Shown piece after piece: positions 22,943-32,973 of a stretch of DNA of 64,000 nucleotides (its first letter is position 1; every line of letters starts with the position of its first letter). The DNA is taken from assembly GCA_000004695.1 (NCBI GenBank), contig CM000151.3, positions 6,560,001 through 6,624,000 of the forward strand. Direction: 5' to 3'. The notes below the pieces were generated by a model that worked only from the letters and a program-made list of their open reading frames with translations, was not told the origin of the DNA and made no database searches. The stretch comes from Dictyostelium discoideum (lineage: Eukaryota). The translations under genes and the position numbers were made by a program.

Positions 22943-25727
22943 TTATTCTTTCCAAAATTTAATACCAATCTTTTTTAGAATATCTTTTTTTGCGCCATTA
23001 TTTGATGGTTGATTTGGAGGTGAAAATTGTTGAGATGTTATTGAATTTGGTGATTGTGGTGATTGAGGTGATTGTGGTGATTGTGGTGATTGTGGTGATT
23101 GAGGTGATTGTTGATCACTACTACCATTATAGGAATTATTTGAACCAGAAGATGAACTAGATAAATCTTGAGATGATACTGTTCTGAGTGGTTGAGATGA
23201 ATTTACATTTTCATGAACACTAACAGGTCTAGATCTACTACTTCCGATTTGAACTGAAGGTTGTGTTGTTCCAGTATCAGCAGCAGTATAATGGAAATCA
23301 CTAATTGAATGTTGTGGTGATAATACAGGAGATTTTATATCTTGACCACCATTGGCTTGTTGATAATTACCAATACCACCAACACTATAACGCTTATTTA
23401 TTGGACTATTATTACCACTTGGTGAACCACTACCACCACTATTATTATTATTTGAATTATTATTATTATTATTTGGATTATGAATACAAACAAAATCAAA
23501 AGACATACCAAGTTTTTGACATTTTTCTTTTGCTTCTTTTAATGCAGATAAATTATTTTGATCATCAGATTCACGATAACCTAAAGCAAACATTAAAGTT
23601 TTAACCAAAAGTAATCTTGGTTGACCAATTGGGAAAGTTTCAGCAAATCTTTCCAAAATGGTTATGGAATCATTAATTTCGGTGACTAATCTTGATTTGG
23701 GGACAGTGACAGCAGTAGCAGAGATATGTTGATGATTTTGTAAGATTTTAATGAGTACCAAAGGTAAACCAGTGTAAGCTTCATACATTGAAAAGTTATT
23801 GGCATCACATTTACTAATGATAATTGAAACACGTCTACAACAATCATAAGCCAATTGCCAATCTTTTTCATTGATTGCAATTTGAGCTTTTAGAATGGTA
23901 TAGTTTGCATGAGCAGAATTCGATAGCTCTTTAATTGACAATAGGTCAACCAAACGTTCAATATCTTGTAGAATGGTATGACAACGTTGGAATTGTCTCT
24001 CGTAAAATAATGCACAACCTTCCACTGTTAGAGCCAATATTTGATTATGATTATCACCACGATTTCTTGCACTCTCCAAAGCTTTAGTGGTTTGTTGATA
24101 GATTAATGATAACTTTCCACCATTGCTACCCAATAAAAGGTAACAAACCGATAAGAATATATTGGATTCTTCCATCAACTTTTTATCACCCGTTTTATGT
24201 GATGCCTCGATCGATTTCTTATAACCACTTTCTGCCTCTTCCCATCTACCTAAACCAGACATATAAATACCCCAACTTTGATGACTATTACCATAAACAA
24301 ATCCATTTGTTTGATCCATTTTAGATAATACTTCTGCATAATATTTTAAAGGTGTTGATGAATCACCATTATTACCTAAAACACGTATACCAATTGAATA
24401 TGCTTCAGCTTGTAAATTCCAATCTGTTAATGATGTTTGTACTGTTGTTGTCGTTGTTGTTGTTGAACTTGATGATAGTTCATTATTATTTGAACTATTA
24501 TTATTATTATTATTATTATTATTGTTATTATTATTATTATTATTATTACTATTATTATTACCTAAACTATTAAATAATCTATTTTTAATACTACTATGAC
24601 TATTATCAAATGAAAGTTGTAATGAAACATAAGAACACCAAGAATCTAAAGTTTTTGAACAATCATGTAATGAAATTTTACTTTGAACGAATAAACATAA
24701 AATTGCTTCTCTCTTTTCTAACATATCTAAATTACAAGAAAAGAATTTTGTAGCTGAATCTTGTCTTACAGCTGCTTTTGCCAAAGTTCTTAATTTTGGT
24801 TTACTTGCACCACTTGAATAATCTTTTGGTGTTGGTGGTTCAAGACCTAAATATTTCAATGCATTCAATAAATGATAAGATGCTTGTCTAAATCTACCAA
24901 CATTAAATAATGCTAAACCTAATTTTCTAGTTATTGATATAATTTCAATTGGTACTTTTTTAAATCCTAAACTAACTAAATCTGCTAATGTTGGTGGATT
25001 TAATATTGTATTATTATTGTTATTGTTATTGTTATTATTATTATTATTTTTATCCTTTTCTTTATCTTTTTCTTTCTCTTTCTCTTTCTCTTTTTCTTTT
25101 TCTTTTTCTTTATCCTTATCTTTTTCTTTTTCTTTATCTTTATCTTTTATATCTTCACCTAAATTACTAAGTGAATTATTATTACTATTATTATTACTAT
25201 TATTATTACTATTATTATTATTTGAATTACTATTTACTAAATTTGAATTATTTGAATCCATTAAATCTTGAAATGAAATATTATTTGGATTATTTGAATT
25301 TGAAGAGATACTAACAGCATCTTTTAAATTTTGAGAGGAAGAACGACGATGTAATTTTTTATGAATTTTAACTTCTTCCTCTGCAATGAATTCTTGTTCC
25401 ATACATTTTAGAGCAAGTTGAAAGAATTTAATTGCCTCTTTATTATTATTTTCAGCTTGGGCCAAAACACCAGCTTTCGTTGCGTATTCAATGGTTTTTG
25501 AATTATTTTGAGCTGAATGATAATGATGAACCAATGAAATGAATAAAGAATGTTGTGGTGTACAAGTATCCTCTAAAACTTTAGCAATCTTTTGATGAAG
25601 CTCCCTTCTTTGTGAGAATAACATTAAATCGTAAATTACTTCTTGTGTACGAGTATGATGAAATGAGTATAATAAATTATTATTAATAATTGAAGTTGGA
25701 GTTGATGGTTGTTCATTAGCATTATTA

Positions 25728-25759
<32 letters not shown>

Positions 25760-31724: not shown

Positions 31725-31778
<54 letters not shown>

Positions 31779-32973
31779 GATTATTATTGCTATTATTATT
31801 AATAGTACCATTACTAGCACCATCAAAAAATGAATTAAAACTCATTGATAATCTTTTATTACTTGCTGCGCTACCTAAAATTGGTGGAATCAATGGTTTT
31901 TGTGGTTGTAATATTGGTGAAGTTAGGATTGGTGGTGTTGAAATTGATGATGATGGTGAACCAGATAAAATTGGTGATGATGGTATTGAATTGTTATTAC
32001 TATTATTGCTATTTGAATTTGAATTTGAGTTTGAAATATCATCTGTTTTGATATCTCTAATTTGTCTTATTACAGGTGTTGTTACAATACTACTGCTACT
32101 ACAACTTTTAGTTGGTGGCTGTGGTAATTTTGGTATTTTCCAAGAGGTTTTCGATACGAAAATCGTTAGGAATTTCCATGATTGTAAGATATTGGTACGA
32201 TGTAGGAAATATTCATTTTGTAGTGGTAATAGGTCTTTACCAAGTTGATGTTGTTTGTTATATTCTTTGACTGTCATAATTATACTATTAACACTTGATA
32301 CTGTGGATCTAATTAATTTACTCTTCTCTTCATGACTTAGTTCCTCTGGATCTATAATACCAAAACATTCTTCTTTTACCATTTTTTCAATAGATTTACT
32401 ATCTAATAGAAACAATGATTGTGATAATTGATTATTATTGTTGTTGTTGTTGTTGTTATTCATTTGATGTGATTTTAAATTTGGTGATGATGATGGAGAA
32501 TAAGATGATAATAAACCTGCACTTCTTCGATTGGTTTGTGGTGATGATTGATTTGGTGAAGAGGATGTTGATGATGATAATGAACTATTATTATTACTAT
32601 TATTATTGTTATTAGTATTTATAATTGGTGTTGATTGAAGTATTTGAATTTGTTGTCTCAAAACCGCTATATTTGGTGAAATTGATGTTGATAATTCTGA
32701 ACATTTTGATGTCATTCTCCTTGAAAACATAACAATCTCTAATTCACTAACAAACTCTGATGCTAAAATCAATTCCTCAATCCTTGCTATATCATATACA
32801 ATCGATCTACCATATTCGATGGTTTTACGTTCAAACTCGTCCAACTGATTGACATTAAAAGAATTAATAAAAGGAACATTATTATTATTATTATTATTAT
32901 TATTGTTATTATTTATATTATTATTATTATTTAATGACAATGATAAAAGAGATGGGCTTGATACATTTTCCAT
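22943..32973 (-). CDS. sgcA: Soluble guanylyl cyclase (a homolog of soluble adenylyl cyclase) of 2843 aa in 4 exons: join(31027..32973, 30800..30869, 28501..29623, 22943..28334).
   Basis: Exon 4 encodes two class III nucleotidyl cyclase domains (YSSCVLFADISGFTSLTERLGNHGKEGVELL...FGGDIVKFAGDAVLAHW and LHIGIGCGDISGVYVGG...[32 protein letters not shown]). A P-loop NTPase (AIIEAEAGLGKSRLISE) and a long TPR-like Asn/Ser-rich C-terminal region follow. Exons 1 to 3 encode a low-complexity region of about 1045 aa. The splice junctions are AAT|gtaaac with tattag (phase 0), ATTG|gtatgt with aaaatag (phase 1), and GAAAA|gtaatt with aaaatag (phase 2). The exon nucleotides sum to 8532, which is 2843 codons plus the stop, matching the size I recall for Dictyostelium sGC. 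The architecture is that of the sAC/sGC family. Confidence 0.85.
28398..28497. repeat. (AAT)33 microsatellite inside sgcA intron 3.
   Basis: A pure aataat... run is flanked by the GAAAA|gtaatt donor and the aaaaatag acceptor. The plus-strand poly-N ORF at 28324..28572 is an artefact of this repeat. Confidence 0.8.

Follow-up and report, generated by a model that had tools for sequence, protein, structure and literature searches.

The soluble guanylyl cyclase (sGC) of Dictyostelium discoideum is encoded by sgcA, for which the locus number given in the literature is DDB_G0276269 (PMC7725310). As reported previously, residues 1-1010 of sGC are both necessary and sufficient for cytoskeletal localization (PMC8684759), and the literature assigns to the N-terminal region the targeting of the enzyme to the F-actin cortex and pseudopods. 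The mean intron of D. discoideum is 146 bp long (PMC5173251, PMC3819988). For the srfB gene of the same organism, introns of 1066 and 1509 bp were described as "unusually large" and were tied to alternative promoters (PMC3819988). Here, we analyzed a stretch of 64,000 nucleotides (nt) of D. discoideum DNA (contig CM000151.3, positions 6,560,001 to 6,624,000; called the window, to which coordinates refer unless another sequence is named). Within it, sgcA very probably occupies 22943..32973 on the minus strand, with the four exons that a first-pass annotation of the DNA had proposed.

Gene model of sgcA

When the segments join(31027..32973, 30800..30869, 28501..29623, 22943..28334) were read on the minus strand, their lengths of 1947 + 70 + 1123 + 5392 nt added up to 8532 nt, or 2844 codons with the TAA counted. 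The translation of 2843 aa contained no internal stops. All three introns had GT..AG ends, and the intron phases were 0, 1, and 2 in order. The claim that the four segments sum to 2843 codons, with GT/AG sites and consistent phases, was thus borne out by the recomputed arithmetic and splice sites. A length of 2843 aa is presumably that of the reference sGC (Roelofs et al., 2001); the agreement with this presumed length is no test of the model.

Exon 1 (31027..32973, 1947 nt, 649 codons) is an open frame that starts with the ATG at 32973, immediately 5' of which lies an in-frame TAA, and it ends in phase 0. Intron 1 (30870..31026, 157 nt, 12% GC) runs from GTAAAC to TTAG and holds a branch-point-like TACTAAC motif at 30931..30937, about 60 nt ahead of the acceptor. 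Exon 2 (30800..30869, 70 nt) reads as DLIEPLEIVLEMFQKFTFSQPTI plus 1 nt and passes from phase 0 to phase 1. The long intron 2 (29624..30799, 1176 nt, 13.4% GC) interrupts the frame in phase 1 and runs from GTATGT to ATAG. Exon 3 (28501..29623, 1123 nt) is coding from the acceptor on (VIENP...) and passes from phase 1 to phase 2. Intron 3 (28335..28500, 166 nt, GTAATT..ATAG) is nearly pure (ATT)n, with 4% GC. Exon 4 (22943..28334, 5392 nt including the TAA) is an uninterrupted frame that encodes the cyclase homology domains, the AAA_16 domain, and the C-terminal region; its junction with exon 3 falls just ahead of the first cyclase homology domain.

The junctions around intron 2 were narrowly defined. 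The frame of exon 3 is open only from 29639, and the sole AG within this open stretch is the acceptor at 29625/29624. On the donor side, four GT dinucleotides were counted by eye at or after 30869 in the exon sequence, and only the GT at 30799 gave the required phase. With its GT and AG ends and with the frame restored by the exon phases, intron 2 fits a U2-type GT-AG spliceosomal intron. Its low GC content, stops in all three frames, and strain length differences that are not multiples of 3 mark it as noncoding. At the predicted junctions, the three introns would be removed from the sgcA mRNA.

At 33112..33138, a (TG)n tract precedes the ATG of sgcA by 140-165 nt, within a 1.24-kb divergent intergenic region shared by sgcA and DDB_G0276285.

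Identity of the gene and domains of the product

The neighborhood of the gene matched the AX4 strain exactly on both sides. The open reading frame (ORF) at 37404..39569 was identical to AX4 DDB_G0276309, and the ORF at 34685..36196 showed 100% identity to AX4 DDB_G0276285. On the other side, a three-exon model of an argonaut-like gene, join(21197..22276, 20611..21108, 19134..20495) on the minus strand, gave exactly AX4 EAL69296.1. With these neighbors, the position of the gene on chromosome 2 fits DDB_G0276269. The product of exons 3 and 4 contained two stretches of Pfam PF00211 Guanylate_cyc (E 4.3e-19), followed by PF13191 AAA_16 (33.6 bits; cut-off, 32.6). Together with the AX4 neighbor proteins, the two cyclase stretches and the AAA_16 domain upheld the first-pass assignment of the gene as sgcA. 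By its sequence, the product would be a soluble adenylyl cyclase (sAC)-type class III nucleotidyl cyclase, and a guanylyl cyclase by the identity of the gene. For the N-terminal 742 residues, no Pfam family match was obtained. In homologue searches, the N-terminal region of about 1000 residues encoded by exons 1-3 was found in dictyostelids only.

The four-exon structure belongs to an already known gene and is a sound annotation rather than a discovery. Much work has already been done on sgcA and its product, to which the gene model as such adds nothing new. In the openly readable literature, we found no statement of the length of the sgcA protein (2843 aa) or of its intron structure. The model serves as a quality check, in that a large Dictyostelium gene rich in low-complexity sequence, including a small exon that is easily missed, was recoverable from raw sequence.

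Comparison with closely related genomes

The place of sgcA was reached via the neighboring genes in three other genomes, two of D. discoideum (L001 and L003) and one of D. cf. discoideum (L002/L004). For L001 and L003, the comparison covered the 5' 5.7 kb of the gene. One gene was called at this place in each genome, with products of 2,785, 2,901, and 2,820 aa, and in L001, L002, and L003 the annotated gene end was exactly the homologue of the ATG at 32973. All six splice sites of sgcA were kept in each of the three genomes. Exon 1 measured 1878, 2049, and 1950 nt and exon 3 measured 1090, 1120, and 1120 nt, so that the exons differed by multiples of 3. The length differences of the introns were not multiples of 3: intron 1 was 160, 145, and 163 nt; intron 2 was 1176, 1094, and 1195 nt; and intron 3 was 89, 121, and 113 nt, with the ends of introns 2 and 3 kept. 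Among strains, the nearly pure (ATT)n intron 3 ranged in length from 89 to 166 nt. Within intron 2, an (AAAC)n microsatellite was expanded in L001 and L003, to 8-15 copies, and an (AATCC)n tract was also variable (about 30065..30112 and 29770..29800).

The pattern of substitutions was that of a coding sequence. The first two codon positions diverged by 1.1-2.0% and the third by 3.8-5.9%; within the catalytic region of exon 4, divergence at the third position reached 7.0-7.7%, versus 0-1% at the first two. When L002 and L004 were joined (10,066 nt), the four-exon model of the D. cf. discoideum gene gave 2,901 aa, which is the annotated length.

Predicted role of exon 2

Exon 2 is predicted to be obligatory when the three GT-AG introns are spliced out. 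By shifting the phase from 0 to 1, it would bring exon 3 into frame with exon 1. Skipping of exon 2 turns the TAA with which exon 3 begins into an in-frame stop. It would also supply a conserved 23-residue stretch of the N-terminal region.

It might instead be supposed that exon 2 is unused and that exon 1 is spliced directly to exon 3. Many direct in-frame joins of this kind are formally possible. For example, when the acceptor at 29624 is paired with a GTTTTA donor at 31016, the intron is 1393 nt long, the frame stays open throughout, and the product has 2823 aa. However, direct joins need weaker sites (GTTTTA versus GTAAAC and GTATGT) and an intron even longer than the 1176 nt of the model. 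In addition, exon 2 was exactly 70 nt long and 100% identical in the three other genomes, and thus invariant in four, with substitutions and indels in the introns that flank it. The annotated 2,901 aa of D. cf. discoideum fits only when exon 2 is included. When the interval between exons 1 and 3 was compared between D. discoideum and Dictyostelium purpureum, exon 2 was the sole blastn match (E 2.6e-15) beyond AT-rich low-complexity sequence. The exon 2 peptide could also be aligned across four species, including Acytostelium. Against this evidence, we consider the omission of exon 2 extremely unlikely.

The first-pass annotation had called exon 2 (30800..30869) a 70-nt micro-exon. The exon is real and conserved, but the term does not fit. 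Micro-exons are usually defined as exons of about 51 nt or less, often of 27-30 nt or less. With 70 nt here and 70-76 nt in the orthologues, exon 2 lies above this threshold and is a short exon.

Exon-intron structure in other dictyostelids

For comparison over a greater distance, the lengths in D. discoideum (exon 1, 1947 nt; intron 1, 157 nt; exon 2, 70 nt; intron 2, 1176 nt; exon 3, 1123 nt; intron 3, 166 nt) were set beside those of three other species. In D. purpureum (L007), the corresponding values were 1833, 895, 70, 992, 1273, and 79 nt. Intron positions and phases were as in D. discoideum, and the junction residues were identical (…INSS|ELIEPLE…PTI|VIENP…). In Polysphondylium violaceum (L005), the values were 1341, 867, 76, 481, 1063, and 85 nt, again with phases 0, 1, and 2, and exon 4 was a single exon of 4678 nt. 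The annotated P. violaceum protein (P0070, 2,385 aa), which was obtained from an exhaustive representative search, was collinear with the query from residue 2, and in a longer pairwise alignment it was collinear with the product of the sgcA model through the N-terminal region. In Acytostelium subglobosum (L006), exon 1 was 1284 nt, intron 1 was 63 nt, exon 2 was 76 nt with a D. discoideum-type donor, and intron 2 was 54 or 78 nt. Thus, the long introns flanking exon 2 are common to D. discoideum, D. purpureum, and P. violaceum, and the introns are short in Acytostelium.

The N-terminal homologue of A. subglobosum (P0217) had its 63-nt phase-0 intron at the same position, after which the sequence continued with EMIESLTKCIDNFKSLVFS…. 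Following this EMIESL... segment, the same G|GTATGTAT donor (GTATGT) was found as in D. discoideum, and the intron of 54 or 78 nt after the exon 2 homologue reopened a long exon-3-like frame. Because its peptide and the intron positions are common to all four species, exon 2 is, as judged from these alignments, evidently ancient.

In the annotation of A. subglobosum DF837582.1, the region 10001..16915 of L006 carried three adjacent models on the same strand, of 496, 73, and 1522 aa. The 496-aa model had an out-of-frame tail at its end. The three models look like a single sgcA orthologue that was split by annotation.

The split Acytostelium models are relevant to the view that the locus holds two genes, an N-terminal gene (exons 1 and 2) and a cyclase gene that starts in exon 3, with the 1.18-kb stretch between them as an intergenic promoter region. 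The length and composition of this interval are indeed similar to those of intergenic DNA, it contains G-box-like motifs, and the orthologous Acytostelium region is annotated as three adjacent genes. Nevertheless, exon 1 and the exon 2 homologue of Acytostelium share one model, and a long exon-3-like frame opens again after a short intron, so that the split there looks like a misannotation. In D. discoideum, exon 3 cannot start an independent gene, because its first in-frame ATG is at 29045, about 190 codons past the exon start. The exon 3 protein is conserved from its first codon (VIENP...), far ahead of this ATG, and in D. purpureum the conservation likewise begins with the first residues (VIENP, KPPHHPKSLE). 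Three species agree in the splice sites and phases, and a single gene was called in five other genome annotations. In experiments, residues 1-1010 and the catalytic part were handled as one protein (PMC8684759). For these reasons, we give two separate genes hardly any credence and retain the single four-exon gene.

A related idea, that intron 2 is an ancestral intergenic spacer left by a gene fusion, was rejected, since in Acytostelium exon 1 and the exon 2 homologue are in one model with short introns.

Length and composition of intron 2

From the conservation of its ends and of the adjoining exons, intron 2 is best read as a genuine long intron that has been retained in evolution. The first-pass annotation had put it at about 1150 bp; the intron itself was supported, and its coordinates (29624..30799) give 1176 nt. 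That it is unusually long was supported by the published mean of 146 bp and by the surroundings of the gene. The introns of each of 11 neighboring annotated genes added up to 0-398 nt, compared with 1,360-1,499 nt for sgcA. An intron of 1176 nt is rare in D. discoideum and is not unprecedented.

The sense strand of intron 2 contains 136 C versus 22 G. This skew was the strongest among the AT-rich 1-kb windows listed, the next strongest being at 61-63 kb. The density of GT plus AG dinucleotides was about half that of the 5' intergenic region. It is plausible that the low G content of the sense strand goes with fewer cryptic splice sites, either as a consequence or as a cause. The largest C-rich island, at 30673..30704 (minus strand), has the sense sequence ACACTACCCCCACACCACTCCCAACCTCCCCC; it is G-rich on the plus strand, with overlapping KGKGKGK matches, and was kept in the other strains apart from a 2-nt indel. 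The published response element of the G-box-binding factor (GBF) is (T/G)G(T/G)G(T/G)G(T/G) (PMC2257962). Read on the plus strand, the C-rich islands of intron 2, such as 30673..30704, are G-boxes that match this element, and a GBF-related function of the island may be supposed from the match. An enrichment of GBF-like motifs in intron 2 was considered and discarded, as three clusters in 1.18 kb are not clearly above the level of other noncoding DNA in the window.

Another AT-rich region with a similar composition was observed near gpaB (G-alpha-2), which has an exon at 59603..60370 on the minus strand. The 2 kb upstream of this exon (61001..63000) showed a plus strand G skew of +0.41 to +0.57 with a dense KGKGKGK run. 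It is the only other strong plus strand G skew in the window, and its composition resembles that of sgcA intron 2.

Intron 2 was also searched for RNAs and genes concealed within it. An E-value scan against Rfam gave no RNA-family match, no tRNA was detected in the intron, and neither a DUSE nor a class I RNA motif was found there. No nested gene was called within intron 2 in any annotation examined. A repeat or transposon origin was rejected, as the matches of intron 2 to the rest of the window consisted only of AT-rich low-complexity sequence.

Divergence and possible function of intron 2

Compared with the three other genomes, intron 2 diverged by 2.9-5.0%, versus 6.6-10.4% in three neighboring intergenic regions. 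Within the species group, its divergence was therefore 2-3 times below that of neighboring noncoding DNA. At the 460 positions of intron 2 outside long A/T runs, the divergence was 2.4-3.0%; the comparison values were 7.0-7.7% at sgcA third codon positions and 8-13% at comparable intergenic positions, with Fisher p from 1e-2 to 3e-10. The reduced divergence suggests constraint, and it hints at regulatory content in the intron. Together with the three GBF-like KGKGKGK clusters, it also hints at a transcription start or enhancer inside intron 2.

One explanation is that the long introns around exon 2 have been kept for a function, either as the site of an intragenic enhancer or internal promoter or for the control of exon 2 inclusion. 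An internal promoter in intron 2 could yield an N-terminally truncated, cytosolic sGC that starts in exon 3. If the inclusion of exon 2 were controlled by intron elements, skipping would leave only the 649-residue product of exon 1. In either case, the C-rich, G-poor, and slowly diverging blocks of intron 2 would act as cis-regulatory or splicing-related elements, and the scarcity of G on the sense strand would also help to keep an intron of eight times the genomic mean length clear of cryptic GT/AG sites. We put this functional explanation forward as a tentative one that, on present evidence, is rather unlikely to be correct.

A neutral origin is a serious alternative to regulation as the reason for the kilobase-scale introns around exon 2. 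Accordingly, intron 2 could be "junk," that is, AT-rich simple sequence that expanded and was tolerated by chance. The intron is 87% AT and rich in strain-variable homopolymer and microsatellite runs, none of its sequence could be aligned with the introns of D. purpureum or P. violaceum, and which of the two introns flanking exon 2 is long differs by species. On the other hand, three divergent species have kept long introns around exon 2 despite the mean intron of 146 bp (PMC5173251). The positions outside AT runs diverge 2-5 times more slowly than neighboring intergenic DNA and third codon positions, and the strand skew is extreme. Taken together, a neutral origin appears quite possible, though short of probable.

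Several points weigh against the interpretation given here. Splicing at the sgcA junctions is inferred from sequence. The curated AX4 model may have been the source from which the other annotations were derived by homology, so that their independence is incomplete. Part of the reduced divergence of intron 2 could stem from alignment quality or local variation in mutation rate rather than selection. Between species, nothing in the intron was alignable beyond exon 2. Finally, the exact 2843-aa product was unmatched in the protein collection, although the exact AX4 neighbor proteins were present. This failed look-up is uninformative, because Dictyostelium members of the sgcA family were never returned, even to a query with themselves. 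In keeping with this, P0070 was not retrieved by a homologue search with 561 of its own residues, and the self-match of a neighboring AX4 gene was retrieved.

Beyond annotation, the locus offers one modest point: kilobase-scale introns have been kept around a small exon in three species, in a setting where the mean intron is 146 bp. If intragenic regulation or regulated exon inclusion is indeed at work, this would bear on the control of sGC levels during chemotaxis, as well as on N-terminal-only and catalytic-only forms of sGC in this process.

Other features of the window

A tRNA-Ser(AGA) gene at 11351..11432 is followed, after about 270 nt, by two long ORFs (417 and 1234 aa) within 11700..16657 on the plus strand. 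By eye, the 1234-aa ORF resembles the endonuclease/reverse-transcriptase ORF of a tRNA-targeted non-LTR (long terminal repeat) retrotransposon (TRE-like). In D. cf. discoideum, the syntenic gap between the 330-aa and 161-aa genes (L004) is about 1.3 kb, so that the TRE-like element is apparently absent there. The argonaut-like gene has an N-terminal repeat region, rich in Q, G, and P, with an unusually high GC content (43-47%); the repeated TGTGGGT and DUSE-like matches in this region are simply codon repeats.

Comparison with known systems

The closest described system is sGC of D. discoideum itself (DDB_G0276269). The gene studied here lies in the same AX4 chromosome 2 neighborhood, with exact neighbor proteins, and its product has the same two cyclase homology domains and AAA-type ATPase domain as well as a long N-terminal extension (PMC8684759). 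No difference between sGC and the model was detected; identity to the reference protein was not directly compared.

Outside the dictyostelids, the significant matches were to ADCY10 (P0039 and P0041) and to numerous bacterial cyclase/TPR proteins. Like the sgcA product, mammalian ADCY10 and the bacterial class III cyclase-AAA-TPR proteins have tandem cyclase homology domains followed by AAA_16/STAND. Unlike the sgcA product, ADCY10 and its bacterial relatives are without the N-terminal region of about 1000 residues that exons 1-3 encode.

With respect to intron length, srfB is the comparable gene, having introns of more than 1 kb, like sgcA, in a genome with a mean of 146 bp (PMC3819988). However, the introns of srfB lie in the 5' untranslated region between mapped transcription start regions, whereas intron 2 of sgcA interrupts the coding sequence.

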